35,361 nt of DNA from Candidatus Omnitrophota bacterium (GTDB lineage Bacteria > Omnitrophota > 4484-213). Positions within the stretch are counted from its first letter, which is position 1. Each line of letters starts with the position of its first letter. Made by a program: the position numbers and the translations under genes. The DNA lies in contig JAGGUG010000044.1 in the NCBI GenBank assembly GCA_021158625.1, positions 1 through 35,361 of the forward strand, in the 5' to 3' direction. Of this stretch, positions 1,563 to 35,361 are shown one piece after another. The notes under the pieces were generated by a model, which had not been told where the DNA came from, made no database searches, and worked only from the letters and a program-made list of their open reading frames with translations.

Positions 1563-1708
1563 CCCTGTTAAATGCCGCTTCGTGGCAATTTCCCTCTGGC
1601 GGAATTATTTAACAGGGTGAACCCAAACAAAAAATAACAAAAAAATGCTTTTAAGTAGTTGTTTTTGGTCATTGGTTATTGTAATTTGGTGCTTGGTGCT
1701 TGGAATTT
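1525..1708. repeat. Two-armed short tandem repeat scar (AAATCAC/AAATTCC left arm, TTGGTGC/TTGG right arm) with a nested palindromic element
   Basis: aaatcacaaattccaaatcacaaacaaattccaat at 1525-1559 and ttggtcattggttattgtaatttggtgcttggtgcttggaattt ending at 1708. Confidence 0.8.
1563..1617. mobile_element. CCCTGTTAA...TTAACAGGG miniature inverted-repeat element (intergenic copy)
   Basis: Perfect 12-bp inverted repeat accctgttaaat / atttaacagggt; same termini as the four intragenic copies. Confidence 0.75.
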
Positions 1709-1741
1709 CTCAACTTTGACGAATGCCAAAGTTGAGTTAAG

Positions 1742-2329: not shown

Positions 2330-2358
2330 GCGAACATAAGTTTGCTGGCTAAATTTAC

Positions 2359-2411
2359 CCAGCACTAATTTTTCAAAGATGTCTTTAACCAAAGCAGAAA
2401 ATTAGTGCTGG
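2359..2411. repeat. CCAGCACTAATTTT...AAAATTAGTGCTGG inverted-repeat element, copy 1
   Basis: Perfect 14-bp IR; the same termini recur at 10517-10616 with a different interior. Confidence 0.8.
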
Positions 2412-2483
2412 ATTCAATTCCACCATACAATTTAGTCTCCTTGCAGTCGCCTAAATTGTGGTGTCATTGAAGGAGGAAGTATT

Positions 2484-20288: not shown

Positions 20289-20342
20289 ATTTTAAAGATA
20301 GTTATATAGTTTTGTGCAGTTTAGTAAGATGTGAGGGGAATA

Positions 20343-22040
20343 ATGAGAAAGAAAGGAACCGTTTCCTCGAGAGAACCTCTTCCTGCAGGGATAGATATCG
20401 GCAGTTCTGGCATCAAGTTAGTCCAGTTGGCTCTGAATTCGCAACAAGGATTAGAGATTATCCGGCTTGATCAAGCCCAATACAAAGAGGTAAACCAGGG
20501 GCTTGAGCCGAACGCCAGAAAGATAGAATTGTTGAGGAGGTTGGTGGAGCGGAACAAAATAGGACCGGCGGTGGTAACTTCTCTTTCCATCGATGAACTC
20601 CAGTTCTATAACCTGACTTTACCTTCTATGCCCAGACAGGAACTTTCGGAAGCGGTGCGCTGGAAGATAGAGGAGCTTTTGCCCCCTCATATGCAGATAG
20701 AGCAGGTAGAATTTGATTTTTTTATCCTAAATGAGAAGGAGAGTTTTGAGGTCAAGAGTCAGATAAGTGTACTTGCGGTGGTGGCGGCCAGGGCTGTGGT
20801 CGAAGAGAAGATTAATCTCCTGCAGGAGGTGGGGCTTAAACCTGTGGCGATAGAAGCCGCTCCTTTTGCTCTGGTTGGCTTCAGCCCTAAGATTTCTCGG
20901 GATGACAGGGAAGTAGTGGTGTGGTTAGACCTTGGCGCCGAGCGCACCTCTATGGTTGTTACAAAAGGAAGCAAAATATACTTTTGCCGTAGATTGGCTG
21001 TCAATTCTAACCAGCTCACAAGGGCGATCCTCGAGCATCGTCACTTGGAATGGAACAAGGCAGAAGAACTAAAGATTAAGTGCGGACTTTCTTCAGAGAA
21101 CCTTAGCCAATCTGAAGAAGATAAAACTACATCGCTCTATCTACCTATGGTTTCTACTCTTGAGAACTTGGTAGCTGATATAGAACATTCTTTCAAATAT
21201 TTTTCATATCAAATAACCCAATCTCGAGTGACAAAGTTTGTTCGTGTAGTCCTTAGCGGAGGTGGTGCCAACCTTAAAAATTTACCTCAATTTTTGAGTG
21301 AAAAATTAGAAGCCCCGGTCGAACTTGCCAATCCCTTCAGCGGTCTTAAAATCTCCGAGGAGATTTATAGCCAAAGAGGAGAATTCCTCCAGGCCCCAAG
21401 TGGTTTTGCTCTCGCTTGTGGTTTGGCAGCGAGAGATGTAGATAAAGAGGGTTTCCGTCCGAATCTGGTGCCCAAAAAGGTGGCTAAAGGTTCCAGATTC
21501 TTTTTCTTTGAAAGGGTTTTCCAGAAAACTTTACAGAAGAAGGGGATGCGAATTGGATTATGTATAGCCTGCGCTTTTTTAGTAATTGTGGGATTTCAAT
21601 TAGGTAAAGTAGAACTTTATAAGCGCAGAGTGAATTCAGCCCGAAGGCAAGTTCAGTTAGTCAAGGCCGACTTGCGACGACTCCAATCCCAGCAATTTAA
21701 GCTCGCCGAGAAACAAGCCGAGTTTCAAGATAGGAAATCAAAGTTAGAAGCCCGGCTAAACTTGTTGAAGGTATCCAGACGTCATCCTGAAGAATTCTCC
21801 AGGGTCTTAGCGGAAGTTGCCACCCTTATCCCCGAAGAGATATGGTTGAAGAAATTAATCTACTCTGAGCAAAAGCTTACTATAACTGGCTCTACTTTTG
21901 ATATACAATTGGTAGCGGAATTGATAAAAAAGTTGGAAGCCTCCCCGGATTTCTTTAACCCTGTGTTTAATTATACCCAGAAGGAACCCAAGAAAGAAGG
22001 AACCTATGATTTTGAGATAACCGTGGAGGTAAAACCATAG
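20343..22040 (+). CDS. pilM: Type IV pilus assembly PilM-PilN fusion
   Basis: GIDIGSSGIK, LDLGAERT and LSGGGANLKNL (actin-like PilM), then RPNLVP, a TM segment, a coiled coil and IPEEIWL...ITG (PilN). Confidence 0.85.
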   Translation: MRKKGTVSSREPLPAGIDIGSSGIKLVQLALNSQQGLEIIRLDQAQYKEVNQGLEPNARKIELLRRLVERNKIGPAVVTSLSIDELQFYNLTLPSMPRQELSEAVRWKIEELLPPHMQIEQVEFDFFILNEKESFEVKSQISVLAVVAARAVVEEKINLLQEVGLKPVAIEAAPFALVGFSPKISRDDREVVVWLDLGAERTSMVVTKGSKIYFCRRLAVNSNQLTRAILEHRHLEWNKAEELKIKCGLSSENLSQSEEDKTTSLYLPMVSTLENLVADIEHSFKYFSYQITQSRVTKFVRVVLSGGGANLKNLPQFLSEKLEAPVELANPFSGLKISEEIYSQRGEFLQAPSGFALACGLAARDVDKEGFRPNLVPKKVAKGSRFFFFERVFQKTLQKKGMRIGLCIACAFLVIVGFQLGKVELYKRRVNSARRQVQLVKADLRRLQSQQFKLAEKQAEFQDRKSKLEARLNLLKVSRRHPEEFSRVLAEVATLIPEEIWLKKLIYSEQKLTITGSTFDIQLVAELIKKLEASPDFFNPVFNYTQKEPKKEGTYDFEITVEVKP

Positions 22041-22050
22041 AGAAGAAAAT

Positions 22051-22911
22051 ATGTTCGAGAAGTTAGCAAACTTTAAGAAGTTAACAACGAGAGAGAAGAT
22101 CCTGGTTATAGGCTTGGTCCTGGTTGTGGGGGTTAATTTGTATATTCAGCTCATCCACAAACCCATCTCTAAGAGGCTTAAGAACTATAGATTTCAACTC
22201 TTGAAGACAAAGGGAAAACTTGAAGAGCTTGAGTCCAAACTCCCCGATTTAAGAAAACAGAAGGACGATATCAATTCTATGAAGGTTGAATTCAAGAAGA
22301 TGGAAGAACATATCAAAGAAATGGAGAGAACCCTTCCTGGCCGGGGGCAGACTACTCAGTTCTTAAAGGAGCTAACTCGTGAGGCCAGCGGTCTGAATAT
22401 TGAGCTAACTTCCATCAGGCAGAAGGTCGAGCGGTACGGAGATTATTCTCGACTCTTCGTGGAACTCAAATTCAATGCCTCTTATGGAGATATAGTAAAC
22501 TACATTCGGAACTTGGAGAGCATTTCGCCTTATTTGGCTGTGGAGAAGATGGAGGTCTCGGAACCTAAAAAGATGGAAGAGAAAAGCACAGTGCAACTTG
22601 CGCTCTCGGTATTGTTGGGCGAGGCTTATCTTCCCGAGTCCTTCAAAGCGCCTCCTGAGGGTCCACCCGTCAAGGTAAGTAGAGATATATTTATCTCCTC
22701 AAGAGGTCCTGTTTCGAGTGCAAAAATTCAAGTCAGCGAGCTTAAATTGATGGGTGTGACCTGGCGAGGAGAAAGATCCACCGCAATAATAAATAATGAG
22801 GTAGTCAGGGTAGGCGATAAGGTAGGTAATCTAAGAGTCAAGCAGATACTATTAGAATCAGTTACCCTGACAGATGGGCGAGAGGATTTTGTCTTATCAA
22901 TTGAAAGATAA
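22051..22911 (+). CDS. pilO: PilO/GspM-like protein with a C-terminal PilP/GspC-like beta domain
   Basis: REK-TM-coiled coil-LP...ASYGDIVNYIRNLE pattern; C-terminal LKLMGVTW...AIINNEVVRVGD. Confidence 0.75.
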   Translation: MFEKLANFKKLTTREKILVIGLVLVVGVNLYIQLIHKPISKRLKNYRFQLLKTKGKLEELESKLPDLRKQKDDINSMKVEFKKMEEHIKEMERTLPGRGQTTQFLKELTREASGLNIELTSIRQKVERYGDYSRLFVELKFNASYGDIVNYIRNLESISPYLAVEKMEVSEPKKMEEKSTVQLALSVLLGEAYLPESFKAPPEGPPVKVSRDIFISSRGPVSSAKIQVSELKLMGVTWRGERSTAIINNEVVRVGDKVGNLRVKQILLESVTLTDGREDFVLSIER

Positions 22912-22912
22912 A

Positions 22913-22991
22913 AAATAGAAGCGGAACAACACTAATCTAAAGGCGAATCAACGCTGAGGGCCTAAATCAGCGTTGAGAGGCACTTCTATTT
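22913..22991. repeat. Nested inverted repeat resembling the flanks of the GxxExxY gene, but empty
   Basis: aaatagaag/cttctattt outer IR and tcaacgctga/tcagcgttga inner IR; TAGAAGCGGA is identical to 33341-33350. Confidence 0.7.
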
Positions 22992-23008
22992 AAAAAGGAG
23001 ATAGTGCT

Positions 23009-24844
23009 ATGAAATCAAAAATTATTAGTAAAAACAGGGCGAGGGTTGTGATTATCTTATTTATTGTTGCTCTCTTTCTAACAACCCCACTTGAGAATAT
23101 CAAGTATGCTTACGGAGATGAGAAGGTTTCTACCGGTGGAGAAAGTTCTTCTTTAGCAGGAGAGAAGTCTGCCACCGTGAGTGGCGTTGCTCTCCCAGGC
23201 GTGGCTCACGCCACGCGTGTTGAGTCTTTGGAAGAACGCTTGAAGAAGAAAATTTCTCTTGATTATAAGGATGCTGATCTCCACAGCGTGCTGCGCTCCA
23301 TAGCCTGGACATATGGGCTCAATTTGGTTACCTCTCCTGATATCAAGGGCAAGGTGACCATAAGTTTACAGGATGTGACCATAGAGGAAGCGCTGGATGC
23401 AATTCTCGCTATAAATGGGCTCACTTACACAAGGCGTAAAGACATCATCTTTATAGCCCCGGGCGACTCCGAGATGGTAGAGATAAAAAACGAAGTTGTC
23501 TTTCTTAAATATATCGCTGCCGGGGAAGCGCAGAATCTTTTAAGAAGAGCTCTTTCACCCAAGGGGGATATAAAAATAGATGAGTTGTCAAATAGCCTGA
23601 TAGTAAGCGATTTCTCTAGCAATATAGCGAAGTTAAAAGAGCTCTTGGGAAAGATAGATGTAGCTCCCACCCAGGTTTTGATTGAAGCAAAGATAGTAGA
23701 TATGACCTCAACCGATTTAAGAGCGTTGGGTGTTAAATGGGATGCGGACTATTCCCCGGGACATGGTATCTTTGACAGGTCTACCAAATACCCTGAACGG
23801 CTGAAAGGCACGATAGATATGACTGAGGAGTCTGCCGGCCTGAGCGGAGGGCAGCTGACCATAGATACCTTTACCCTGAAACATCTTACGGTCACCGCTA
23901 CAATAGATGCCCTGGTGAAGAATGGAAAAGCCAATCTTCTGGCAAGTCCCTCCATTGCTGTCTTGAATGGTCAGGAGGCCCGAATCATAATCGGCGAAAG
24001 ATATCCCTATAAGGAGCGTACCCAGACCGCCACGGGCACCACCGAGACAACAAAGTTTGTGGATATTGGAACCACTCTCAGGGTGACCCCTCAGGTCAAC
24101 GAGGATGGTTACATCACTATGAGAGTCCATCCCGAGGTATCTTCATTATACGCTTCTCTCGATGCAGGACCAAGGATCACCACCCGCGAAGCCGATACCA
24201 CCGTGAGAGTGAAGGAAGGAGAAACTCTGGTTATAGGAGGGCTGATTAAACAGAAGGACAACCGCTCCCGCGGAAAAATCCCCATCTTTGGTGATATTCC
24301 CCTAATCGGATTTCTATTCTCCCGAAGCGAAAGGGATATGGAACAGAAGGAATTGGCGGTATTTATAACCCCCCGGATATTAAGGTCCAGAAAGGAGATG
24401 GAACTCCTTAGCAAGGAGAAGGTCGCCAGGGAAGAGGTATATGTGACCTTGGAGAAAACTGCGCAGCTTTCAATTGTATCCAGGTTATTTAAAAAGGCGA
24501 ATAACCTGGATAAGGGTTACGGACTGGCGAGCCGCAGAAAGAGTGAGCAATTCAGAAAGGCTCAGGCTTTGAGTTTGTTTGAGCACATCTTTACTGAATT
24601 CCCCGACAGTGAGAAGGCTCCGGAGGCGAAGTTTCGGGCAGGAATGATATATTACAGAGACCTGAAGGATTATAAGAAGGCAAAAGATATTTTCTCCCGG
24701 GTAATCTCTGATTATCCAGAAAGCCCCTTCGCAACAAAGGCTAAGTATTATCTTCGCAAAATGGAACCCAAGAAACCTGAGAAAAGAAAAAAGATAAAAC
24801 GGAGACTAAAACCTGACTTAGAGCCCACCTGGAAAATAAAGTAG
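23009..24844 (+). CDS. pilQ: Secretin (PilQ/GspD family) with a C-terminal TPR extension
   Basis: STN/N domains, QVLIEAKIV, LASPSI..LNGQEA.I.IG, LRVTPQV, GETLVIGGLI, IPIFGDIPLIGFLF and ELAVFITPRI motifs. Confidence 0.9.
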   Translation: MKSKIISKNRARVVIILFIVALFLTTPLENIKYAYGDEKVSTGGESSSLAGEKSATVSGVALPGVAHATRVESLEERLKKKISLDYKDADLHSVLRSIAWTYGLNLVTSPDIKGKVTISLQDVTIEEALDAILAINGLTYTRRKDIIFIAPGDSEMVEIKNEVVFLKYIAAGEAQNLLRRALSPKGDIKIDELSNSLIVSDFSSNIAKLKELLGKIDVAPTQVLIEAKIVDMTSTDLRALGVKWDADYSPGHGIFDRSTKYPERLKGTIDMTEESAGLSGGQLTIDTFTLKHLTVTATIDALVKNGKANLLASPSIAVLNGQEARIIIGERYPYKERTQTATGTTETTKFVDIGTTLRVTPQVNEDGYITMRVHPEVSSLYASLDAGPRITTREADTTVRVKEGETLVIGGLIKQKDNRSRGKIPIFGDIPLIGFLFSRSERDMEQKELAVFITPRILRSRKEMELLSKEKVAREEVYVTLEKTAQLSIVSRLFKKANNLDKGYGLASRRKSEQFRKAQALSLFEHIFTEFPDSEKAPEAKFRAGMIYYRDLKDYKKAKDIFSRVISDYPESPFATKAKYYLRKMEPKKPEKRKKIKRRLKPDLEPTWKIK

Positions 24845-24925
24845 AGGGATGCTTAGGGAGGCTCTTATGTTTCCTTATAGTCCCTATGAATGCCATAACG
24901 AGAGTGACCCGCGAGGAGTAAGAAA

Positions 24926-27157
24926 ATGAAAAAGAACAAAATAATATATTTATTCTTTCTCGGTCTACTAATTTCTCTTTTAGGAGATTTAAGGTCAGTC
25001 TACGCGCTGGATGAGCAACCTACTCGCCTCGCTGAGTCGGCGCTTGTCTCGGGGCGCTCGCCTCTCGGCGAAGCCGAGGAAAATCAGGGGAAGCGGGTTA
25101 AACAATCCACAAGCGTAAGTGAGGCAATGGCGCATTACAATTTGGCTAAGAAGTATTTTTTATCCGGAGAGTATACAAAAGCCCGCCAGGAATTTGGCTT
25201 AGCCGCCCAATTAGATCAGAGTAAACGCAAGTCCGTTTATCGCCTTTCCCGGATGTATCTAAAGAAAATTGAGGAATTAGAAAAGAAGAGGAAACAGACA
25301 GAGGCGAGAAAGAGATGGGAAAAGATGAGGGCGGAGAAGTTAAGAAAGCAAGCCGAACTCAAAGCCAGGCGCGAAGCAGAAAGGAAAGCCAGACAGGAAG
25401 CCGCGCAGAGGGCTAAGGAAGCCACACAAAAGAGAAGAGCTGAAGTTAGAGCCAGGAAGGAAGAGCTCAAGAACTACTATACCAAAGGCAAAATCCATTA
25501 TCACAAAGGACAATATCAAGAGGCGATTGAGGAATTTAAGAAAGTTTTAAGTTTAGACCCAGAACATAAGGCAGGGAGATATATTGAGCTTTCCTTGAAG
25601 GCGATTGAAAAAAGAAAGCAGAGAAAACTTTTAGCTCAGAAGAAGGCAGAGCAACAAGCCAAGAGACAAGAGGAAGTGAGACCTCCCTCTCAAGAGCGGG
25701 AGGTTAAACCGGGCGAGAAAGAAAGTCTGAAGGAAGAAATAGAGCGACTTAAGCGTCAGATTGAAGAAGAAAATACTCGACTTAGGCTCGAGATAGAGAA
25801 ATTGAGAGAATCCCAGGAAAAGGCAAAGGAAAGGGAGTTGAGGCCAAAGGTTGAGGGGATGTTAGCGAAAAAGGAGGCCTTGGCTCTGGAAGAAGCAAAA
25901 TTAAAGGCATTCGTTGCGGGTCTTCAGAAGCTTGAAGCCAGACAGAGGAGACTTAAGCGGGAGGCCGAAGTTAGGATGAGTTTTAACAAAAAGGAGAGAC
26001 TCAAAGCAAGGGAAAGAAGAATAAGAGAAGAAGAGGCTAAGCTTAAGCTCAAACTCAAGGAAGAAAAGAACGCTCTCAGAGCCCGGCTTGAAGATGAATC
26101 AAAAAGAAAATTGAACTCTCTCCTTGAGGAAAAAGAAATTTTTTTCATTAATCAACTTGAAGAATACAAGCGAATACTCCAGGAGAAAGAAATTCCCTCT
26201 GTGGTTCAATTAAAAGAGAAAAAAAAGAAGATTTGTGCCCAATTGGCAAGTCTCCAGGAAGAGAAAAAGAGGCTTGAAGAGCTAAAACGCTCAAGGGCTG
26301 AACTAAGGAAAAAATTAGAAAGGAAATTCCAGCGACAGATTAAAGAGAAACTCACTCCCGGGCCCTCACTTCGGGTTGAAGTTAAAGAGGAGGATGAAGA
26401 ACTCAAAGCCAATTTGACAGCTGTTAATGAGAAGATAAAAAGGGTAGAGAAGATAAAGAAAGAGATAGAAGAGGAGTTACTGAATGAGGAGAAGAAACAG
26501 CAGAAGCAGAAGGAAAAGGCTCTGAAGGAAGAGAAAGCGCGAATTAAGCGAGAGTTTGAAAGGCAAAAGACTCGATTGGCTCTTGAGTTCCAAAAGGAGT
26601 TAAAGGCAAATTTTCAGACCCGGCTTAAGGCTCTGGAAGCAGACCGTAGGACCAAAATTGAGTCAATCTTAAAAGAGGAAGAAAAAAAAGAGAAGTTGGC
26701 TTCTGAATCAGAAAAGAAGTTACTTCAGGCGATTCTCAGAAAGTTAGGAGAGGTTAAACAACAAAGAGTTCAGGCCCAGGATAGACTTAAGGTCATTGAA
26801 ACTCTACGAAGAGAGCTTGAGGCACAGAGGAAAGCCGAACTCAAAGCCAGGCGCGAAGCAGAAAGGAAAGCCAGACAGGAAGCCGCGCAGAGGGCTAAGG
26901 AAGTAGAAGCCCCACCCATAGAACCCCCGGCCGGGGAATACTTAATAAGCGAGGGCGATACATTAGAGATCTTTGTTTACCTTCCTGACCTTCCAGAAGA
27001 AGTCAGCGTCAACTTGGATGGCGAGATTTCCTATCCTCTAATTGGCACGCTCCAGGCGAAAGGAAAAACCATAGACCAATTAAAGGAAGAAATCAGTGAG
27101 AGATTATCTCAATTTATAAATAATCCCTATGTCTCATTAACGATAAAAGGAAAATAG
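24926..27157 (+). CDS. Exported TPR, long coiled-coil and C-terminal Poly_export (Wza-like) domain protein
   Basis: Signal-like N-terminus; two TPR-like units; ~450 aa of E/K/R-rich helix; YLISEGDTLEIFV...V.LDGEISYPLIGTLQAKGKTIDQL...NPYV. Confidence 0.75.
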   Translation: MKKNKIIYLFFLGLLISLLGDLRSVYALDEQPTRLAESALVSGRSPLGEAEENQGKRVKQSTSVSEAMAHYNLAKKYFLSGEYTKARQEFGLAAQLDQSKRKSVYRLSRMYLKKIEELEKKRKQTEARKRWEKMRAEKLRKQAELKARREAERKARQEAAQRAKEATQKRRAEVRARKEELKNYYTKGKIHYHKGQYQEAIEEFKKVLSLDPEHKAGRYIELSLKAIEKRKQRKLLAQKKAEQQAKRQEEVRPPSQEREVKPGEKESLKEEIERLKRQIEEENTRLRLEIEKLRESQEKAKERELRPKVEGMLAKKEALALEEAKLKAFVAGLQKLEARQRRLKREAEVRMSFNKKERLKARERRIREEEAKLKLKLKEEKNALRARLEDESKRKLNSLLEEKEIFFINQLEEYKRILQEKEIPSVVQLKEKKKKICAQLASLQEEKKRLEELKRSRAELRKKLERKFQRQIKEKLTPGPSLRVEVKEEDEELKANLTAVNEKIKRVEKIKKEIEEELLNEEKKQQKQKEKALKEEKARIKREFERQKTRLALEFQKELKANFQTRLKALEADRRTKIESILKEEEKKEKLASESEKKLLQAILRKLGEVKQQRVQAQDRLKVIETLRRELEAQRKAELKARREAERKARQEAAQRAKEVEAPPIEPPAGEYLISEGDTLEIFVYLPDLPEEVSVNLDGEISYPLIGTLQAKGKTIDQLKEEISERLSQFINNPYVSLTIKGK
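25350..26903 (+). repeat. Exact 72-nt direct repeat (25350-25421 and 26832-26903)
   Basis: Both copies encode AELKARREAERKARQEAAQRAKE with identical DNA, 1482 nt apart. Confidence 0.92.
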
Positions 27158-27210
27158 CGTTATAGCGTAATAAAGTTATAGATTTCAACTCAATAACCCA
27201 ATAACAAAGA

Positions 27211-27262
27211 AAGACCCTTATTTACCCTTATATTCCCTTATTCACCCTTATTTAGCCTTATT
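27211..27262. repeat. CCCTTAT array with a 10-nt period
   Basis: aagaccctta tttaccctta tattccctta ttcaccctta tttagcctta, followed by antisense ataagggg. Confidence 0.9.
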
Positions 27263-27303
27263 AAAATAAGGGGAGACAATAACCCAATAACACAATAACG
27301 AGT

Positions 27304-28521
27304 ATGCCTACTTTCACTTACAAAGCCCGAGATAGCTTTGGTGAACTTATCAGTGGGGCTATAGAAGGTGACAATAAGAAAGCCGTAGCCAAGAGCCTTA
27401 ACAGATTGGGTTATAGTGTTATCCAGATAAGCTTGCAAAAATCACTCCAACCAATCCTCACAGATTTTATCAAGGGTTTTCGTCCCATAAGTAAACAAGA
27501 AATAACCGTCTTTACCAGACAATTGGCTACCCTTAGTCGTTCGGGGATGGCTATATCCCCGGCTCTTTCCATAGCGTGTGAGCAGACCACCAATCCTAAA
27601 TTTCGCCTTATCTTAGGGGATGTGGTTAATCATGTCCAGGGGGGTATGAGCCTCTCAGAAGCCCTCTCAAAATATCCTGAGGTTTTCTCGGATCTGTTTG
27701 TAAATATGGTCAAAGTGGGGGAGACAGGTGGGATTTTAGATAAGGTCCTGGATAGACTGGTTACCTTAAGCACTCAGGAACTCGAAAGGAACACGCGCAT
27801 AAGATCAGCATTAATCTATCCTATAGTTCTGGTAGCTGTTGCCTTCTTGGTAGTAAATTTTCTTCTAATAGGAGTTCTTCCGAAGTTTGTTGCTGTATTT
27901 AGGGCATCTCAGGCGAGATTACCGCTGCCCACCCAGCTTATTCTGAGTTTTAGTTGGATTTTGAGGCATCTGTGGTTACCTCTATTGATTGGTGTGGGGT
28001 GCCTCGCAGTTTGGTTTAAGAGGTACATAAAACAACCTGCAGGAAGATACAGGTTTGATTCGAAGGTTTTAAAACTACCCCTGTTTGGTAAACTTTATAC
28101 TAAAATAATGATATCCCGTTTTACAGGTGTCCTCTCAGCGCTCATCGCCTCAGGAGTTCCCCTGCTTCAAGCCCTGGGCGTTGTGGAGAAGACCATTACC
28201 AATATGGTCATCCGCCGCATAGTTCAGAATATACGCACCTCCATCACTGAAGGACAATCTCTGGCCGGAGCATTTAAGACCAGTGGTTTCTTCCCGCCTA
28301 TGGTTGTCCAGATGATATCGGTAGGAGAAAAGACGGGCAAGCTCGATGAAATGCTTCGGGATATTTCTTCTTTTTATGACCCGGAGATAGAATACACGAT
28401 TAGAAATCTAACTACCCTCTTAGAACCATTTATGTTGTTAGCAATGGGGGCTATGGTTGCCTTCATCGCTTTGTCGGTGTTATTACCGATATTCAACTTG
28501 ATTAAAGTGTTCCGGGGATGA
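27304..28521 (+). CDS. pilC: Type IV pilus / T2SS platform protein PilC/GspF
   Basis: MPTFTYKARD, FTRQLATL, GETGGILD, ALIYP and VGEKTGKLDEML...LLEP motifs. Confidence 0.95.
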   Translation: MPTFTYKARDSFGELISGAIEGDNKKAVAKSLNRLGYSVIQISLQKSLQPILTDFIKGFRPISKQEITVFTRQLATLSRSGMAISPALSIACEQTTNPKFRLILGDVVNHVQGGMSLSEALSKYPEVFSDLFVNMVKVGETGGILDKVLDRLVTLSTQELERNTRIRSALIYPIVLVAVAFLVVNFLLIGVLPKFVAVFRASQARLPLPTQLILSFSWILRHLWLPLLIGVGCLAVWFKRYIKQPAGRYRFDSKVLKLPLFGKLYTKIMISRFTGVLSALIASGVPLLQALGVVEKTITNMVIRRIVQNIRTSITEGQSLAGAFKTSGFFPPMVVQMISVGEKTGKLDEMLRDISSFYDPEIEYTIRNLTTLLEPFMLLAMGAMVAFIALSVLLPIFNLIKVFRG

Positions 28522-28525
28522 GTAT

Positions 28526-28801
28526 AACCCTTATTTTCCGGGGATGAGTATGACCCCTATTTACCCTTATAGTCCCTTATTCTTTATTGAGGAAAACCCT
28601 TATTTAATAGAAGTCCCTTATTAAGAGAAAACCCTTATTTACCCTTATTTAATAAGAATCCCTTATTAAGAGAAAACCCTTATTTACCCTTATAGTCCCT
28701 TATTGAGGGAAGACCCTTATTTACCCTTATTTAATAGAAGTCCCTTAATTCGTCCTTATTGAAAATGAAAGAAAGACTTTATTCGCCCTTATTCACCCTT
28801 A
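28526..28801. repeat. CCCTTATT array
   Basis: About 20 imperfect units with mixed 10-nt and 15-17-nt spacing. Confidence 0.95.
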
Positions 28802-28808
28802 CGCCACT

Positions 28809-29264
28809 ATGAACGCAATAATGAAGAAAGGTTTTACTTTACTCGAGCTTCTAATCGTAATAAGTATAATCGCTATCCTCGCAGCTACGATGATTCCCAA
28901 CTTTATCGGCTTCGATGCAGAAGCAAAACTTGCTGCTACTCAAAGCAACCTTAATACCCTCCGCACTCGCATTGTTCTCTTTAGAACTAAAGAGGGACAT
29001 TATCCCGAAACTCTGGAAGAACTATTAGAGACCACCTATAGCGATATGGGAATAGAACGGCCATATCTGGATAGTATACCTGTGGAGTTCATCTCTTCAA
29101 AGCAGGGAAATGCTGATGTTGAGAACCAGACTTCCGAGGACCCCCTACCCGGAGACGGCGGCTGGGTCTATTTTGTAGACAAAGCAAAAGTAGTTATAGA
29201 CTGGGATATGCCCCTCGATTCAAAATGGGGAAAGTACGAGGGGGAGGTGCCATCGGAATGGTAG
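28809..29264 (+). CDS. Prepilin, GspG/PilA-like major (pseudo)pilin
   Basis: KKG|FTLLELLIVISIIAILAATMIP with Glu5; GHYP..LEEL. Confidence 0.9.
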   Translation: MNAIMKKGFTLLELLIVISIIAILAATMIPNFIGFDAEAKLAATQSNLNTLRTRIVLFRTKEGHYPETLEELLETTYSDMGIERPYLDSIPVEFISSKQGNADVENQTSEDPLPGDGGWVYFVDKAKVVIDWDMPLDSKWGKYEGEVPSEW

Positions 29265-29283
29265 TTCGTTATTGTTATAAACG

Positions 29284-29326
29284 AAGAACCCTTATTTACC
29301 CTTATTTTCCCTTATCTTCCCTTATT
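29284..29326. repeat. CCCTTAT array with a 10-nt period
   Basis: Four units followed by antisense ctaagggg. Confidence 0.9.
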
Positions 29327-29355
29327 AAAACTAAGGGGAGACAATAAATGACGCA

Positions 29356-29712
29356 ATGAACACAATAACAAACAAGGGGGTTGTGCTGTTAAGCGTTGTA
29401 ATTATTCTGCTGACCATAACCTTAATCGGTGGAAGCCTTGCCGCCTTTTTATCATCGGTTAATATCTCAACGTGCAATATAGCCGACCAAACAAAGGCGC
29501 TATACCTGGCTGAAGCAGGCATTGCTCATGCGATTCATAATCTCCGCACCGAGGCAGGAGAGGGTGGCATCCTGGATAAGACGATTGGACCCATTACTCT
29601 TGGAGAAGGAACCTATCAGGTTTCAGTGGATTTTGCCCAATCGCTGATAACCTCAACCGGGGAGGTGCGCGGAACAAGGCGAACACTCCAGTTTCAGTAT
29701 AAACCCCTATAG
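29356..29712 (+). CDS. PilX/GspK-like minor pilin
   Basis: KG|VVLLSVV without Glu5; KALYLAEAGI and ITSTG motifs typical of PilX N-terminal domains. Confidence 0.8.
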   Translation: MNTITNKGVVLLSVVIILLTITLIGGSLAAFLSSVNISTCNIADQTKALYLAEAGIAHAIHNLRTEAGEGGILDKTIGPITLGEGTYQVSVDFAQSLITSTGEVRGTRRTLQFQYKPL

Positions 29713-29737
29713 CGTTATAGGGTATAGTGTTATAGAC

Positions 29738-29955
29738 GAAGACCTTTATTTTCCCTTATTTACCCTTATTTAATAGAAGTCCCTTATTAAGAGAAAACCC
29801 TTATTTAATAAGAATCCCTTATTGAGGAAAACCCTTATTTACCCTTATAGTCCCTTATTGAGGAAAACCCTTATTTACCCTTATTTGATAGAAGTCCCTT
29901 AATTCGTCCTTATTGAAAATGAAAGAAAGACTTTATTCGCCCTTATTCACCCTTA
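29738..29955. repeat. CCCTTATT array
   Basis: About 15 units; the 3' 88 nt (29888-29975) are identical to 28734-28821. Confidence 0.95.
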
Positions 29956-29962
29956 CGCCACT

Positions 29963-30379
29963 ATGAACGCAATAACAAATAAAGGTTTTACCTACATCGA
30001 GCTTCTAATAACCCTGGTGATAATGGCGGTTTTGTTTGTCCCGATGATGCAAGTATTTTCCCATTTCCTCCATTCCACCGTGGTATCCCAGGATTTCATA
30101 ACCGCAACAAATTTAGCCAGATGGGAGATGGAGCGGGTCAAAAATCTGAATATGACCAAAGCCCAACTTAGAGAAGCGGGCGATAGCATATATCCGTCGG
30201 GTGAACCGCTTGAGATGAATAATGCAAAGTGGCGGATAAGCAGAAAGGTATTCAAAGAGACTGATCCTCTGGAGGTTCGTGTTTCTGTCTTCCATGACGG
30301 TGAACCCGACAGGCCCCTCGTGACCCTGGTGACGCTAATTGAGGATACGATTTGGGAGGAAATTCGCCCATTGGAATAA
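29963..30379 (+). CDS. PilV/GspI-like minor pilin
   Basis: KG|FTYIELLITLVIMAVL; ATNLARWEME. Confidence 0.85.
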   Translation: MNAITNKGFTYIELLITLVIMAVLFVPMMQVFSHFLHSTVVSQDFITATNLARWEMERVKNLNMTKAQLREAGDSIYPSGEPLEMNNAKWRISRKVFKETDPLEVRVSVFHDGEPDRPLVTLVTLIEDTIWEEIRPLE

Positions 30380-30384
30380 AGATG

Positions 30385-30516
30385 TTCCCTTATTCACCCT
30401 TATCAAGGAAGATCCTTATTTTCCCTTATCAAGGAAACTCCCTTATCAAAGGAAGTCCCTTATCAAAGGAAGCCCCTTATTTTCCCTTATCAAGGGACCC
30501 TTATTCACCCTTATCA
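30385..30516. repeat. CCCTTATC(AA) array
   Basis: About 10 units of the TC subtype. Confidence 0.95.
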
Positions 30517-30531
30517 AACCAAGAGGCAGAA

Positions 30532-31746
30532 ATGGTCTATCAACCCAAAGACCCCTTAGGTTTTACCCTAATTGAGCTACTGATTGCTATCGCCATATCG
30601 GTAGTAATTAGCGCGGCGATATACTTCAGTCTGAGTAGTGCCCTGGAGAGCTGGGGATATTCCCGGGACCATCTTGCTCTTCAGAAGGTTATTTCAGAGG
30701 TTATGGACGAAGTTGCGGACGGGACCTTCAGAGCATATGGACTAAAAGACAGTTTAGAAATACTATCAGCGAGCGGGACAAAGATAGAGTTTGTCCCCCC
30801 CTGGACCGACGATACCCATATGTTTATCTCTGGTGACCTAATTTATACCTTGAACCGTCGACCCAAGCCCGGGTCGGCAGTGCCAGTTGGAGAGGTTAAA
30901 TTCCCCGGCTCAGATGAGTATCGAACCATACCCGTAACTCTTGTTGAAACAGAATTTATAAAAGAACCTCAGGTTAAGATTGGCTTGGTGCCGCCTGAAG
31001 GGAGCCAACTTCGCTTTACCTACCATCCTGACCCCAAAACAAACCCCGATACAATAAAGACTATCTGGTGGGACCCGGAGGAGCAACAACTCTATTCAGA
31101 GGATATAGATGGGATAGAGAATATCTCTAGGAACCCTCTTGGAGTAAAGCTCACCGATTTTCGCCTGCGATACTACGATAACGCAAATAACCCGGTAGGC
31201 GACCAGGGCGGGCTCGACCAGAATACTCTGCTGACGGTCACCGGAATCGAGGTATGGATGAAGGCTGAACTTGGCCAATATTCACAAGAATTAGTGAGTT
31301 TCGTAAACCTGCGCAATTCACCAATGCGTAAAGGTTTCCTGACTTTAAGAGAAGGCACTAAATTTCCCATTCCTGACAGCCACAACATCCACACCCTTTT
31401 ATTGACCAACTTTTCGGGTGTAGGGAATCTGGACGAACTTCAGCTTGAAGCCACTCCATCCACAGGAAAGAGCTGGGGGGTAACTATAAAGTTTTCAAAA
31501 ACGGGTTCAGCTAAAGCCATAATAGAGACTCTTATTATAGAATATCCACCTGGCCATTCCATCTATACTGAACACCCTCGCTCAAGCGTTGAGCTGGGAT
31601 TGGATCTGCTTACCCTGGGTGCCAATGGCCTCTATGACTACGATGACGACCCGGACATCGAGGACTTTGTCCTGCTGAAGGATGAGGTGGTATTAGAGGT
31701 GAAGAGGATGGATATCGAAGGTGCCGGGCTTTTCGTTAGACCATGA
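30532..31746 (+). CDS. PilW/GspJ-like minor pilin with a leader copied from the four-helix-bundle gene
   Basis: MVYQPKDPLG|FTLIELLIAIAISVVI; GAGG RBS before ATG 30532. Confidence 0.85.
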   Translation: MVYQPKDPLGFTLIELLIAIAISVVISAAIYFSLSSALESWGYSRDHLALQKVISEVMDEVADGTFRAYGLKDSLEILSASGTKIEFVPPWTDDTHMFISGDLIYTLNRRPKPGSAVPVGEVKFPGSDEYRTIPVTLVETEFIKEPQVKIGLVPPEGSQLRFTYHPDPKTNPDTIKTIWWDPEEQQLYSEDIDGIENISRNPLGVKLTDFRLRYYDNANNPVGDQGGLDQNTLLTVTGIEVWMKAELGQYSQELVSFVNLRNSPMRKGFLTLREGTKFPIPDSHNIHTLLLTNFSGVGNLDELQLEATPSTGKSWGVTIKFSKTGSAKAIIETLIIEYPPGHSIYTEHPRSSVELGLDLLTLGANGLYDYDDDPDIEDFVLLKDEVVLEVKRMDIEGAGLFVRP

Positions 31747-32041
31747 AAAGACCCTTATTGAAGGAAGACCCTTATCAAAGGAAGTCTCTTATCAAGGGAA
31801 GCCCCTTATTTCCCCTTATCTCCCTTATTCACCCTTATCAAGGAAACTCCCTTATCAAGGGAAGACCCTTATCAAGGAAAAACCCTTATCTTCCCTTATT
31901 TTCCCTTATTCACCCTTATCCAAGAAAGTCCCTTATCAAAGGAAGACCCTTATCTTCCCTTATTTTCCCTTATCAAGAGACCCTTATCAAAGGAGGACCC
32001 TTATTTTCCCTTATCAAGAGACCCTTATTCACCCTTATCAA
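31747..32041. repeat. CCCTTATC(AA) array
   Basis: About 22 units; the longest array, directly 5' of the four-helix-bundle gene. Confidence 0.95.
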
Positions 32042-32055
32042 ACCAAGAGGCAGAA

Positions 32056-32610
32056 ATGGTCTATCAACCCAAAGACCCCTTAGGTTATAAGAAGCTCCTG
32101 ACCTGGAAACAGGCCGGCGAGATTTATCACAAGACAAAAGATTTTACCAAGAAATACCTCAATAGAACAACAGATAGAAGATTAATTGCTCATATGGATG
32201 ATTCCGCCCGGTCAGTTCAACGTAATATAGAAGAGGGTTATAAAAGGGCAACGACAAAGGAGTATGTTGAATTTCTTGGTTTCTCCCGCGCCTCTTTGGA
32301 AGAATTGAAGGGGGATGTTGAGGAGTTGAAAAGGGAATGGAAAGAAGGGGTAAGATGGGTCGATAAAGGGAAAATAGAGGAGTTGTTGGACCTTATTTAT
32401 GGCGAAGATTGTATGATGGGCAGGCAGATTGCATCTCTGGAGAGGAAGATGGTAGAGGAGAAGACTCTGCCGCAGAAAGAGATGATAATGAGAAGTTGGA
32501 AATTGGATAAATTGAGAGAGAAAAAGTTCTGGAGGTCTATTAAAGATAAATTTGGGCTTGAGAAGGATGAAAAAGGGAGGATAAGAAAGAATGATGATGA
32601 GAAAGAATAA
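32056..32610 (+). CDS. Four-helix-bundle protein (23S rRNA-IVP / TIGR02436-like family)
   Basis: GYKKLLTWKQA...HMDDSARSVQRNIEEGY.R...EYVEFLGFSRASLEEL pattern. Confidence 0.88.
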   Translation: MVYQPKDPLGYKKLLTWKQAGEIYHKTKDFTKKYLNRTTDRRLIAHMDDSARSVQRNIEEGYKRATTKEYVEFLGFSRASLEELKGDVEELKREWKEGVRWVDKGKIEELLDLIYGEDCMMGRQIASLERKMVEEKTLPQKEMIMRSWKLDKLREKKFWRSIKDKFGLEKDEKGRIRKNDDEKE

Positions 32611-32618
32611 GGAACAGA

Positions 32619-32820
32619 TTTCCCCTTATTTACCCTTATTAAGGAAACTCCCTTATCAAAGGAAGTCTCTTATCAAGGGAAGACCCTTATCAAGGAAAAA
32701 ACCCTTATCTTCCCTTATTTTCCCTTATTCACCCTTATCAAAGGAAGTCCCTTATCAAGGGAAGCCCCTTATTTTCCCTTATCTTCCCTTATCAAGAGAC
32801 CCTTATTCACCCTTATCAAA
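32619..32820. repeat. CCCTTATC(AA) array
   Basis: About 15 units directly 3' of the four-helix-bundle gene. Confidence 0.95.
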
Positions 32821-32833
32821 CCAAGAGGCAGAA

Positions 32834-33343
32834 ATGGTCTATCAACCCAAAAACGCAATAACTCCCGCCTGCCGGACGGGCAGGCAAAAACGCAATAACC
32901 CAATAACAAATAAGTGGCTATCAGTATTATTATTAGTGGTCTTCAGTGTCCTTTTCGCTACGGTTGCCTGTGCTGACGAAAAGGTATGGAGTGCTGGCGG
33001 AGATGAAACGACCTGGAGCGACGACGACAACTGGTTTCCGGCCGTTGAACCCAACAGTGAAGACGATGTCACCATAGATATGGAGGATGCCTCTGTTACT
33101 TGCACCGAGACCTTTAAAGCAAAGTCTATCGTTGTGGGTGGCAGAACGAGTTCGACCCTTACCAGCAACAACTTTGTCTACGGAACAGTAACGCCCGATT
33201 CGGCATCTGATGTGGCATTAGACAATAAAAAGGGCGGCACGATTATCCTGAAGGGTGCTGGAACGCTCACCCTGGGAGGTCAATATAGGAGTTCAGAAGA
33301 ATCTCTCATCTCCGAGCCGAGCTTTATGTTCTGGGTAAAGTAG
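32834..33343 (+). CDS. Small secreted acidic beta-rich protein (WS..NW motif, G8/adhesin-like) with a mosaic repeat-derived N-terminus
   Basis: Hydrophobic signal ending ACA|DEK; WSAGG...WSDDDNW.P..EP...DDVTI; GAGG RBS before ATG 32834. Confidence 0.7.
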   Translation: MVYQPKNAITPACRTGRQKRNNPITNKWLSVLLLVVFSVLFATVACADEKVWSAGGDETTWSDDDNWFPAVEPNSEDDVTIDMEDASVTCTETFKAKSIVVGGRTSSTLTSNNFVYGTVTPDSASDVALDNKKGGTIILKGAGTLTLGGQYRSSEESLISEPSFMFWVK

Positions 33344-33820
33344 AAGCGGATCTCCGCGGATAGCGACGCAGAAAGACGCGGATAGAATAATGGGAAAGTT
33401 ACTATATGAAAAGGAGTCGTACGAGATACGCGGCGCGTGTTTTGCAGTTTGGAAAGAATTCGGCAGTGCTTTTAAAGAGACAGTAATTGAAAAAGCCTTG
33501 GCAAAAGAGTTTAAGGAGAGAGGATTGTCTATAGATCGCCAGAAACGGATAGATATATTCTATAGGGATGAAAAAGTGGGCGTTTATATTCCAGATTTTG
33601 TAATAGATAATAAAATTATTATAGAGATTAAGGTTAAACCTGTATTGATTCAAGAAGACAGGCGACAGTTTTGGCATTACCTTAAAGGTTCTCATTATCG
33701 TCTTGGGTTTTTGGTCAATTTCGGTACGAAGAAACTTGAGATTGTTAGGAGGGTATATGATTCTGCGCGCACAAGATATCAGCGTATATCCGCGTAGATA
33801 TCCGCGTCTATCTGCTTCTA
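33341..33820. mobile_element. Inverted-repeat-bounded cassette carrying the GxxExxY gene
   Basis: tagaagcgga versus tctgcttcta (9/10 complementary); agacgcggata versus tatccgcgtct (11/11); tandem (ACGCGGA)/(TCCGCGT) units. Confidence 0.6.
33390..33797 (+). CDS. GxxExxY family protein (PD-(D/E)xK nuclease-like fold)
   Basis: LLYEKESYEIRGACFAVWKEFGSAFKETVIEKAL, PDFVIDNKIIIEIK, QFWHYLK and GFLVNFG; the signature is the variant GSAFKETVI. Confidence 0.9.
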   Translation: MGKLLYEKESYEIRGACFAVWKEFGSAFKETVIEKALAKEFKERGLSIDRQKRIDIFYRDEKVGVYIPDFVIDNKIIIEIKVKPVLIQEDRRQFWHYLKGSHYRLGFLVNFGTKKLEIVRRVYDSARTRYQRISA

Positions 33821-33848
33821 AATAACCCAATAACAGGAGGTAAAAGCG

Positions 33849-35361
33849 ATGAAAAAGAAAATTTGGATGTTGGTGTTAATAGCAATGGTCATCTTACTTG
33901 GCGTCCACTATCTTTACGCCGGCCAGCTCCTCTTTGACGGTGTTCCCGTGGACATCACCACGACCGACAATGAGGACCTGGTCATTGTCCCCGGCAGTGG
34001 TGGTAATACTCAAATAGGCGATGCCACCGGCGCAAATACCCACGCCACCTCAAACGACGATTTGCATGTGACAGGCGTTTTAGAAACCGACGGTGTCCTT
34101 TATTCTGACTCAGGCATAATTTCAGGTTCCACCATCCGCTCGGACACCGACTCAACAGATTCGCTCGGTTCAAGCTCAACTGCCTGGTTGAACCTCTATG
34201 TAGATTCAGTCAAGACTGTATCCGGCACGAACCTTATTCTTCTCCCAACCTCGGCATATACCATAATCGGCGATGCTGGCTCAGCAGGCCATGTCTCAGC
34301 CAACGACGACCTCTTTGTATCAGGCGCTTTGGAGGTTGACGGCACAATCTACGCAGACGGCGCGATTACCGCTGGGTCAAATATCATTTCCGATACCGAC
34401 TCAACCGACTCGCTCGGTTCCTCTAATATCGCCTGGTTGTACCTCTATGTAGATACTATCTCCACAACATCAGGGACAGACCTTTCGTTATCTCCAGCAT
34501 CAGGAAGCGGCGTGGATGGCTCGGTAACCCGTTCTGCCGCAACAGGTAACGAAATTGCCTACGACCTCGCCGCCACTGTAGAGAAAGCCTCGGGAGACTT
34601 TACCGGCCTCAGACTCAATGTCACAGATACCGCCTCACCCGGGCTGCTTAAACTGCAAGACCTGCAAGTCGGGGGGACTTCCATATTGCAGGTTTATGAA
34701 GACACAAACTCTGCCAACTATGGCCGTCTATCAGTCGGCTCTGCCCCCTGGGATGGCGAAGCATCAGGACACTTTGTTGGCTCCTCAGACGGCACCCAGA
34801 TTGCCGTAAATGCACCGGATACCTTTACCGGAAATCTTATTGACTTACAAGTCGCCGGTGTTTCCAAATACAAAGTTAGTTATGAGGGTATAGTTACCCA
34901 GGTTGGCTCCCAGACCGTTACTGGAAATATCGTTCCCTCGGCAGATTCAGAGTATAACCTCGGCTCAACCTCGGCTGCCTGGTTGAATCTTTATGCCGAC
35001 AATATCAAGACAGTGAGCGGCACGAACCTTATTCTTCTCCCAACCTCGGCATATACCATAATCGGCGATGCCGGCTCAGCAGGCCATGTCTCAGCCAACG
35101 ACGACCTCTTTGTCTCCGGAGCCGCAGAAGTCGACGGCACCCTCTACGCCGATGGCGGAATAACCGCCACCACTGTAAATGCCACCACCTTTGATACCAA
35201 TGTTGCTGCTGCCGGCCTCACTCTCTCCGGGACGACCCTTGCTGCTGACGGCACCGATACCGACATCAACATCGCGATTACCCCCCAGGGCGCAGGCGAG
35301 GTGGATATCAGCAAGGTCGATATCGATGGCGGGACTATTGACGCGACAACCATCGGGGCGA
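33849..35361 (+). CDS. Large exported S/T/D/G-rich repeat protein (adhesin/fibre-like), truncated by the window end; absent from the ORF track
   Basis: AGGAGG RBS; MKKKIWMLVLIAMVILLGVHYLYA signal; open to the window end; repeats SDTDSTDSLGSS..AWL.LY.D and IGDA....NDDL.V.G..EVDG. Confidence 0.88.
   Translation, partial: MKKKIWMLVLIAMVILLGVHYLYAGQLLFDGVPVDITTTDNEDLVIVPGSGGNTQIGDATGANTHATSNDDLHVTGVLETDGVLYSDSGIISGSTIRSDTDSTDSLGSSSTAWLNLYVDSVKTVSGTNLILLPTSAYTIIGDAGSAGHVSANDDLFVSGALEVDGTIYADGAITAGSNIISDTDSTDSLGSSNIAWLYLYVDTISTTSGTDLSLSPASGSGVDGSVTRSAATGNEIAYDLAATVEKASGDFTGLRLNVTDTASPGLLKLQDLQVGGTSILQVYEDTNSANYGRLSVGSAPWDGEASGHFVGSSDGTQIAVNAPDTFTGNLIDLQVAGVSKYKVSYEGIVTQVGSQTVTGNIVPSADSEYNLGSTSAAWLNLYADNIKTVSGTNLILLPTSAYTIIGDAGSAGHVSANDDLFVSGAAEVDGTLYADGGITATTVNATTFDTNVAAAGLTLSGTTLAADGTDTDINIAITPQGAGEVDISKVDIDGGTIDATTIGA
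34223..35113 (+). repeat. 96-nt near-exact direct repeat (34223-34318 and 35018-35113)
   Basis: One synonymous mismatch (gct/gcc); 795 nt apart and in frame. Confidence 0.9.

Follow-up and report, generated by a model that had tools for sequence, protein, structure and literature searches.

Four-helix proteins of the PF05635 family are widespread and were first seen decades ago in the intervening sequences (IVSs) of ribosomal RNA (rRNA). Here, we analyze a gene of this family in a 35,361-nt stretch of DNA from a Candidatus Omnitrophota bacterium (GenBank contig JAGGUG010000044.1; hereafter, the window), where it lies in a type IV pilus operon as part of a small cassette whose ribosome-binding site and first codons recur at the start of two neighboring genes. 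The closest described system is the IVS of Coxiella burnetii 23S rRNA, which encodes an S23p/PF05635 protein; the accessible part of that report treats the family as uncharacterized and as probably a selfish passenger of the IVS (PMC4990558). A preprint on rRNA insertions in the candidate phyla radiation, in its accessible part, likewise calls the PF05635 protein uncharacterized (10.1101/2024.02.27.582315). The window is contig C87 of genome G000, a 1.18-Mb metagenome bin of 128 contigs that is ~90% complete; the organism names attached to its protein homologues place it in Omnitrophota.

The window cassette resembles the 23S rRNA IVSs that bear an open reading frame (ORF), as far as the accessible text on them goes (PMC4990558): it encodes a protein of the same family and is small, sporadic, and apparently selfish, with repeated ends and a location inside a host transcription unit. 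Unlike those IVSs, it lies between protein-coding genes of a pilus operon instead of in an rRNA helix, and its arms are long direct arrays of a 7-nt word rather than inverted termini. The arms fold as RNA no better than shuffled sequences (z -0.21 and -0.64), with no RNase III-type stem evident in them, and the four-helix gene is intact, with a good Shine-Dalgarno (SD) sequence and a start that host genes appear to have captured. Compared with array-flanked four-helix homologues and copies elsewhere (L057, L058, and L060 in other genomes and metagenomes; C105, C56, C82, and C69 in G000), the window cassette has direct arms, and its arrays extend to seven intergenic regions. The sole solved structure matched by sequence is Xanthomonas campestris XCC0516 (PDB 2gsc; profile match, E 4.5e-06, residues 13-88), a member of the same uncharacterized four-helix-bundle family, to which the window protein adds 10 residues at the N-terminus and, at the C-terminus, a K/E-rich part of ~95 residues outside the match. 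The accessory protein Avd of diversity-generating retroelements belongs to the same Pfam clan, but the only RVT_1 match of the genome is on contig C56, and the repeats in the window are exact copies, not A-mutated pairs.

The second described system is the class III signal peptide of type IV pilins and the type II secretion system (T2SS), represented by PF07963 and TIGR02532. The pseudopilin next to the cassette has G at -1, F at +1, E at +5, and a hydrophobic helix, as these proteins do, and the genome encodes a Peptidase_A24 (contig C84, 84.5 bits in a profile search). As a difference from this system, the leader in the window is not homologous to those of the protein's 119 relatives, seems to derive from an unrelated cytoplasmic protein, and has a net charge of 0.

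One Translation Start in Three Copies

The cassette gene (32056-32610; this and the other features of the operon given by position below are on the + strand) has the start MVYQPKDPLGYKKLLTWKQ and encodes a 184-aa four-helix-bundle protein with a pI of 9.3. The product is a family member by its matches to PF05635 (47.7 bits, cut-off 33.8) and TIGR02436 (42.4 bits, cut-off 24), and the gene is the sole copy of its subfamily in the genome. Its native start lies in a block, copy B (32020-32086), that has the character of the donor. Copy A (30496-30562) repeats it exactly over 67 nt and opens the gene of a 404-aa GspJ-like minor pseudopilin (30532-31746, N_methyl and TIGR02532 matches; hereafter, the pilin). 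Copy C (32798-32851) opens the gene of a 169-aa secreted protein (32834-33343, start MVYQPKNAIT...), an orthologue of the gene directly 3' of the pilin in relatives; it is identical to 30496-30549 over 54 nt, and 32784-32851 is identical to 32006-32073 over 68 nt. The initial annotation, made without database searches, had given the 67-nt and 54-nt identities correctly to the base.

Each block consists of the end of a repeat array followed by an SD sequence, an ATG, and codons, ten in copy A (MVYQPKDPLG) and six in copy C (MVYQPK). The string AAGAGGCAGAAATG, which spans the SD and the ATG, occurs in all three (30521, 32045, and 32823) with the MVYQPK codons next, and the SD AAGAGG stands 5 nt upstream of each ATG. 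Identity between copies A and B stops within GGTT at the G|F codons, after which the pilin reads TTTACC (F T) and the four-helix gene TATAAG (Y K); exact alignment thus bears out the earlier proposal of a prepilin leader MVYQPKDPLG|FTLIELL that switches source at GGTT and the G|F cleavage site. At lower stringency, the similarity of A and B extends to 112 nt at 96%, and the arrays 5' of B and C align over 110 nt at 95% (repeat families D9 and D8). A 112-nt probe found nine matches in the 1.18-Mb genome, every one on the window contig. An exact 67-mer repeat within 35 kb is far beyond chance.

The chimeric pilin remains a recognizable member of its class, scoring 26.9 bits against PF07963 (cut-off 21.2) and 26.8 bits against TIGR02532 (cut-off 16.3). 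The only in-frame start with an SD 5' of its G|F codons is the grafted ATG; the alternative, a TTG at 30352, would read through the whole array. In the secreted gene, likewise, no ATG in frame lies between 32834 and the hydrophobic core. Because no other in-frame start lies near their 5' ends, both host genes would depend on the translation-initiation region of the cassette, and the chimeric leader is predicted to be processed by prepilin peptidase.

The graft on the secreted gene had also been recognized earlier, although the start of that gene proved to be a three-part mosaic: MVYQPK is followed by NAIT with a hairpin insert and then by NNPITNKW and the signal peptide. NAIT matches codons 2-5 of the MNAITNKG leaders in neighboring pilins. 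The insert, at 32849..32899 in the 5' coding region, is a pair of AAAAACGCAATAAC (32849 and 32886) flanking a GC hairpin (32867-32885). Since a different secreted protein from a genome of the same genus starts MNTITNKWLL, the ancestral start of the secreted gene was probably of this type. The hairpin itself, GCCTGCC..GGCAGGC, lies between two copies of a 14-nt repeat. Hairpins of the form CCTGCC(3-8)GGCAGG number 13 in the genome (contigs C12, C62, C95, C116, and others), and four of them sit centrally in ORF-less inverted word arrays (TCGTT.../GACGAAAC...).

Origin of the Shared Start

The first codons are native to the four-helix family. A protein search returned 105 other homologues of the four-helix protein, nearly all annotated PF05635, of which 36 start with M[VIF]Y[QKLMTE][PS][KRQ]; two more carry the motif behind an over-called extension, giving 38/105, and 16 have the exact start MVYQPK. 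The motif is present in nearly all homologues with at least ~60% identity, so that MVYQPK(N/D)P.GY can be taken as the native N-terminus of the subfamily. An alignment of 30 close relatives gives the consensus MVYQPKNPVGYR.LLTWKQAG, in which G10 never varies and Y11 hardly ever does; both residues and the subsequent LLTW are conserved columns.

The same codons are foreign to pilins. None of the 119 other pilin homologues listed by the protein search starts with MVY or has YQP within its first 45 residues, and the nearest (P0108, 85% identical over 98% of its length) starts MGRG|FTLIELLIAIAISVVI, that is, MGRG|FTLIELL. Because the motif is native to one family and foreign to the other, the comparison supports a transfer of the ribosome-binding site and first codons from the four-helix gene to the pilin and secreted genes. 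This is what the initial annotation had proposed, an in-frame pasting onto two neighbors, and it had suggested comparing the N-termini of orthologous pilins; the contrast of 38/105 with 0/119 agrees with it. The observation that it named as fatal, orthologues that start with MVYQPKDPLG where the four-helix gene is missing, was not encountered, as the 14 cassette-free pilin loci described below all lack the motif.

A Cassette in an Otherwise Compact Operon

Fourteen orthologous pilin loci (L015 and L077-L089) were read, one from G006 (36% identity) and 13 from other genomes of the phylum (48-66% identity), after searches of 41 and 401 genomes. A tblastn search for the four-helix gene gave no match in these 14 loci, which contain 0-2 CCCTTAT words per ~4 kb and no arrays. 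Their operons are compact, with the secreted gene 5-12 nt 3' of the pilin or overlapping it in most, and the orthologues of the secreted protein begin, for example, MRKIILLLIVF...AAEKNWAGGGDGSTWSDDDNW. In G000, the gap between the two genes is 1,087 nt, made up of array, four-helix gene, and array. Judged by this comparison, the four-helix cassette is an insertion between the pseudopilin and the secreted gene.

Four genomes of the same family (G001-G004) did not yield the pilin or the operon (window 20331-35361); the best matches, at 61-66% identity, come from other families of the phylum. Either repeats block assembly in those four bins, or the operon was acquired horizontally. What G001-G004 do match is limited to the 5' part of a 743-aa gene and a 53-nt signal-peptide stretch. 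Two pattern searches returned false leads. The degenerate MVYQPK pattern ATGGTNTAYCARCCNAAR has three matches in G000 and two elsewhere among 401 genomes of the phylum, both due to chance, one being the start of an IS3-type transposase. A triple-word pattern matched one of 41 relatives besides G000, and this match, in G027, is an unrelated short hairpin by toxin-antitoxin-like genes.

CCCTTAT Arrays

The initial annotation recognized the exact blocks correctly and missed that these are merely the 3' ends of CCCTTAT arrays 150-310 nt long, which occupy seven intergenic regions. The window has 79 CCCTTAT words, and 77 of them are on the + strand in these regions, between 27158 and 32833. Region 1 (27158..27303), 5' of the gspF/pilC-like gene, has 4 words at 10-nt spacing and 2 AATAACCCAATAAC words. 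Region 2 (28522..28808), a type-1 array, has 14 words, with the start of pseudopilin 1 (MNAIMKKG|FTLLELL) at its end, and region 3 (29265..29355), with 4 words, precedes a 118-aa pilin-like gene (MNTITNKG...). Region 4 (29713..29962) is again a type-1 array, of 11 words, and region 5 (30380..30531), which ends in the SD AAGAGG of the pilin, is a type-2 array of 9 words. Regions 6 (31747..32055, 21 words) and 7 (32611..32833, 14 words) are the left and right arms of the cassette. Region 7 is collinear with the 3' ~200 nt of region 6, array-unit indels aside, which makes the arms direct repeats. The spacing of words within an array is exactly 10 nt in 34 of 68 cases and exactly 17 nt in another 17. 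No other contig of the 128-contig genome has a cluster of at least 4 CCCTTAT words.

Arrays of this kind are a hallmark of the cassette family elsewhere, a point absent from the earlier reading of the cassette. We fetched 21 loci encoding four-helix homologues from other genomes and metagenomes, 16 of them with a complete start. The homologous ORFs are flanked by short-period arrays of CCCTTAT, TCCTTAT, CCCTTCT, or CCCTTAA. Over the 16 loci, the density of CCTTAT/ATAAGG, a word picked after the data had been seen in place of an exact-6-mer enrichment test that was too strict for degenerate words, is 14.7/kb in the 150-nt flanks (66 in 4,482 nt), 5.7/kb in the ORFs, and 0.58/kb elsewhere; 13 of the 16 have at least 2 such words in their flanks. 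The arms are inverted in L057, L058, and L060 and direct in L049, L055, L061, L062, and L065. Since homologous four-helix genes from other metagenomes are flanked by this word too, the CCCTTAT arrays can be assigned to the cassette, a PF05635 ORF bracketed by 21 words on its 5' side and 14 on its 3' side.

Many homologues (among them P0005, P0007, P0065, P0071, P0097, and P0104) carry in-frame tandem peptide repeats, such as VTRDAVTRDSVTR, DKGNIRDNKGNIR, and DKGGYRNIKDDKGGYRNVK, between the second and third helices and at the C-terminus; because of these repeats, it appears that arrays of ATAAGGG-type words also grow inside the ORF. As for other signals in the window, Rfam gave no match in 27000-34000 at E<=0.1, promoter-like sites number 16 (13.3 +/- 3.5 in shuffles), and terminator-like sites number 15 (8.2 +/- 2.8 in shuffles), several of the latter being mini-hairpins of the arrays.

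Public Assemblies and a Second Strain

The window was compared with assembled Logan contigs and unitigs from four public runs; such contigs drop rare variants and break in repeats. Unitigs from three runs of one study reproduce the window sequence, and record 18 of X4 (30496-31260) bridges block A into the pilin. From a second study, record 26 of X5 (30498-30944) bridges the same junction in a ~97%-identical strain that has its own changes within the block: 30537 C>T (synonymous), 30548 A>G (K6R), and 30558 A>C (L9F), yielding the pilin leader MVYQPRDPFG|FTLIELL. The 27 listed pilin differences between the two strains comprise 18 synonymous and 9 non-synonymous changes. The chimeric pilin fusion is real and inherited, because a ~97%-identical strain from another study carries it, and the excess of synonymous changes points to purifying selection on the pilin in both strains since the graft.

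X5 has no cover at 31805-32660, the four-helix gene and its arms, which cannot mean absence, as contigs break in repeats. Its contig departs from the window sequence 2 nt before the pilin stop, and 13 unlike letters follow, the end of which resembles the first letters of the left arm of the GxxExxY cassette described below, a match too short to interpret.

Mechanism and Alternative Explanations

We consider it probable that a selfish cassette was inserted in this operon and that its left arm, SD, and start were joined in frame to the pseudopilin and secreted genes. The cassette would consist of a four-helix gene of the 23S rRNA IVS protein family, with its own SD and start, between two CCCTTAT arms, and it would have entered between the GspJ-like pseudopilin gene and the normally abutting secreted gene. 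The left arm, SD, ATG, and 10 codons would have been joined to the pseudopilin exactly at the G(-1) codon, and the left arm and first 6 codons to the secreted-protein gene; the cleavable leader of the pseudopilin would then be the N-terminus of a selfish protein. Prepilin peptidase needs little beyond G-1 and E+5. The grafts may have survived in tolerant parts of the two proteins, namely a leader that is cut off by this peptidase and the n-region of a signal peptide.

Because the left copies lie in long, similar arrays and no homology extends to the right of the pilin join beyond GGTT (neighboring pilins read AAAGGTTTTAC there), we infer that recombination or copying took place among the many similar arrays to the left and that the right-hand end was sealed through microhomology, at GGTT for the pilin and at an A-rich/AAC stretch for the secreted gene. 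Up to 4-5 nt of microhomology at the pilin join is plausible. The route may have been arm-only copying or the insertion of whole cassettes followed by deletion of their bodies.

Several points weigh against this explanation. Both initiation at the grafted ATG and cutting at G|F are predictions from sequence, and the net charge of 0 of the pilin leader departs from the +1 or +2 of most homologues' short leaders; it is unusual, not unique, as among 62 homologue leaders of at most 25 residues, 7 have a net charge of 0 and 3 are negative. For junctions B and C, public unitigs include just 30 block letters, one short of the bridging rule used in the unitig comparison; this is the number present in each of the unitigs leading into the four-helix gene (from 32057) and into the secreted gene (from 32822), and the two junctions therefore rest on the window assembly and on near-bridging unitigs. 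The same-genus and same-family genomes G001-G004, although 84-96% complete, have no detectable orthologous operon, and given this the ancestral state is read from more distant relatives. A second copy of the start block is present in 0/17 loci of other four-helix homologues, and a search for a duplicated start block in 400 other genomes of the phylum gave no true match. Finally, neither the window nor the genome contains a second fragment of the four-helix body or, beyond the starts themselves, a footprint of insertion followed by deletion.

The last point bears on the choice of route. Complete cassettes could once have stood 5' of both the pilin and the secreted gene and lost their bodies through deletions from codon 10 and codon 6, respectively, a possible history to which we lean less than to its negation. 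It fits the arms in regions 6 and 7, whose collinearity extends over more than 200 nt and takes in the first 6 codons, as in a tandem duplicate with a lost body; the differing positions of the two joins, as expected of independent deletions; and genome G279, where a GxxExxY cassette stands 5' of each of these two genes, intact at one and decayed at the other, indicating that cassettes land at both places and then decay. On the other hand, no residual four-helix coding extends past the first 10 or 6 codons in the window, and four further intergenic regions have arrays with no trace of a start block or ORF, so that arms seem to spread or persist alone. Moreover, L055, L061, L062, and L065 have directly repeated arms with no duplicated start, in line with the 0/17 given above.

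A more elaborate proposal is that array, SD, and start form a self-propagating 'translation-start cartridge' and that the four-helix protein binds the 10-nt-phased words on DNA or RNA, the cassette, through arrays placed 5' of seven consecutive cistrons and the change of two of their starts, thereby controlling the pilus operon or becoming undeletable; we regard this as improbable.

The initial annotation had also raised deletion between the blocks as a source of switchable pilus variants. In a programmed switch of this kind, RecA-mediated recombination between the direct repeats, A x B or B x C, would delete the pilin body or the four-helix gene, respectively, and produce a phase-variable pilus. 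The repeats, 67-68 nt exact with more than 100 nt at ~95%, are long enough for homologous recombination, and the departure of the X5 contig 2 nt before the pilin stop implies that the structure 3' of the pilin differs between strains. Yet no joint between block copies occurs in any of the four runs, whose assembled contigs drop rare variants and cannot show rare molecules. In addition, deletion by A x B would cost the cell a conserved minor pseudopilin under purifying selection, and the blocks differ between strains where a conserved recombination site would be expected to be maintained. We hold such a switch to be quite improbable.

It could also be argued that the chimeric starts exist in no cell and that the three copies arose by mis-joining or collapse of short-read contigs through the repeat. 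The genome is a 128-contig metagenome bin, the exact repeats of 54-68 nt exceed common assembly k-mers, and public unitigs break 30 nt within the blocks. However, the two bridging records described above span junction A, one of them from another study and with its own changes in the block, and the right-hand unitigs each start exactly k-1 letters into the block and run into different genes, as expected of three distinct right junctions. The 54-nt unitig common to the three copies has a depth of 45.3 in X1, ~3.5-4.7 times that of its single-copy neighbors (9.6-12.8), and the protein collection lists 3 contigs for each of the exact 404-aa and 184-aa products. For junction A, the artefact reading is largely refuted, and the exposure of a misassembly, on which the earlier proposal was to fall, did not occur there; for the locus as a whole, we hold an artefact to be very improbable. 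The reverse direction, in which MVYQPKDPLG would have been a leader native to the pilin or the operon and the four-helix gene the recipient, has nothing in its favor beyond the symmetry of the repeat and is scarcely credible, refuted as it is by a motif that 38/105 four-helix homologues carry on unrelated contigs, fused to the family residues G10, Y11, L14, and W17, and that 0/119 pilin homologues carry.

Implications for Cassettes and Pilin Leaders

The new elements in this locus are the apparent in-frame capture of a cassette start by host genes and the spread of the arrays across a whole operon; a literature search found no paper that describes cassette-derived starts or arrays of words on the flanks of PF05635 or GxxExxY genes. 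The locus shows what such a cassette carries, its own SD and start and arms built of a family-specific 7-nt word, and what it may do to a host operon, where it splits coupled genes, places arrays in every intergenic region, and would donate a translation start and first codons. It also amounts to a natural experiment in which a class III signal peptide was apparently replaced in its entirety by an unrelated sequence while purifying selection persisted in two strains; what seems to count is only G-1 together with the mature N-terminus. For annotation, the warning is that N-terminal 'extensions' in candidate phyla can be translated cassette arms.

Second Cassettes and Parallel Cases

A second cassette of the same build lies in the same operon, 3' of the secreted gene. 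The element (33344..33830) contains a GxxExxY/PDDEXK_3 gene (33390-33797; TIGR04256 at 106 bits) between CGCGGATA words at 33355 and 33377 and inverted TATCCGCG words at 33787 and 33799. It also has a 20-nt inverted repeat at 90% identity.

Genome G279 offers an independent parallel that supports the general picture, by analogy (L077, contig C112, reverse strand, ~1020-3000 of the reoriented locus; pilin 66% identical). An intact GxxExxY cassette adjoins the mature pilin codons there, the sole start of the pilin lies within the 3' end of the cassette, and the TCAGCGT array would be translated as the leader MRRPVPNISVYQRRYQRISASNS|FTLIELL; the pilin is annotated with this cassette-derived N-terminal extension. 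A decayed second GxxExxY cassette supplies the start of the secreted gene, with the array again as an N-terminal extension. Evidently, gene starts in this operon are repeated landing and remodeling sites, and cleavable N-termini tolerate the remodeling.

Within the window, the three small pilin-like genes provide a second, older case. The stretch 29862-30009, comprising the last ~100 nt of region 4 and the first 47 nt of pseudopilin 3, is 94% identical over 148 nt to 28708-28855, so that pseudopilins 1 and 3 share an array end, an SD, and the first ~15 codons. All three pilin-like genes start MN(A/T)I(M/T)(K/N)KG, and their G006 orthologues differ (MKMAGSKNG, MVMKIKEGINQRG, and MMRGKTGPVSLNSG).

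Other PF05635 and GxxExxY copies in G000 (C105, C56, C82, and C69) have the same array-flanked build, each with its own words. Several of the four-helix/GxxExxY copies on C105, C82, C69, and C73 are broken; their flanking words are CCAGTGA, GACGCCAA/TTGGCG, and GGATG/ATCCG, and the C82 copy sits between tRNA genes. On C56 (1423-3569), a PDDEXK_3 fragment, a weak PF05635 match (23.6 bits), and an RVT_1 match on the opposite strand (77.4 bits), which is the genome's only reverse transcriptase, lie between GCGCAATTAGCG-type arrays. This cluster may be a diversity-generating retroelement with an Avd-like protein.

Setting of the Operon

The type IV pilus/T2SS-like operon, assigned by Pfam and NCBIfam matches, fills the right third of the window. 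It begins with a PilM-PilN fusion (20331-22040), followed by PilO (22051-22911), a secretin (23009-24844), the 743-aa TPR/Poly_export protein (24926-27157), and GspF/PilC (27304-28521). The three small pilin-like genes start at 28809, 29356, and 29963 and precede the chimeric pilin; the four-helix, secreted-protein, and GxxExxY genes follow it in the order given above. The word AATAACCCAATAAC has four copies (27192, 27278, 32894, and 33821), all on the + strand of the operon and none elsewhere in the genome; they lie near gene starts, one within the 5' end of the secreted gene. The last gene of the window, from 33849, encodes a large secreted repeat protein. A Pfam search with this protein (33849-35360) gave no match, and repeats of 249 and 795 nt occur in the DNA within its gene (209 nt at 84%; 54-nt units at 74-76%).

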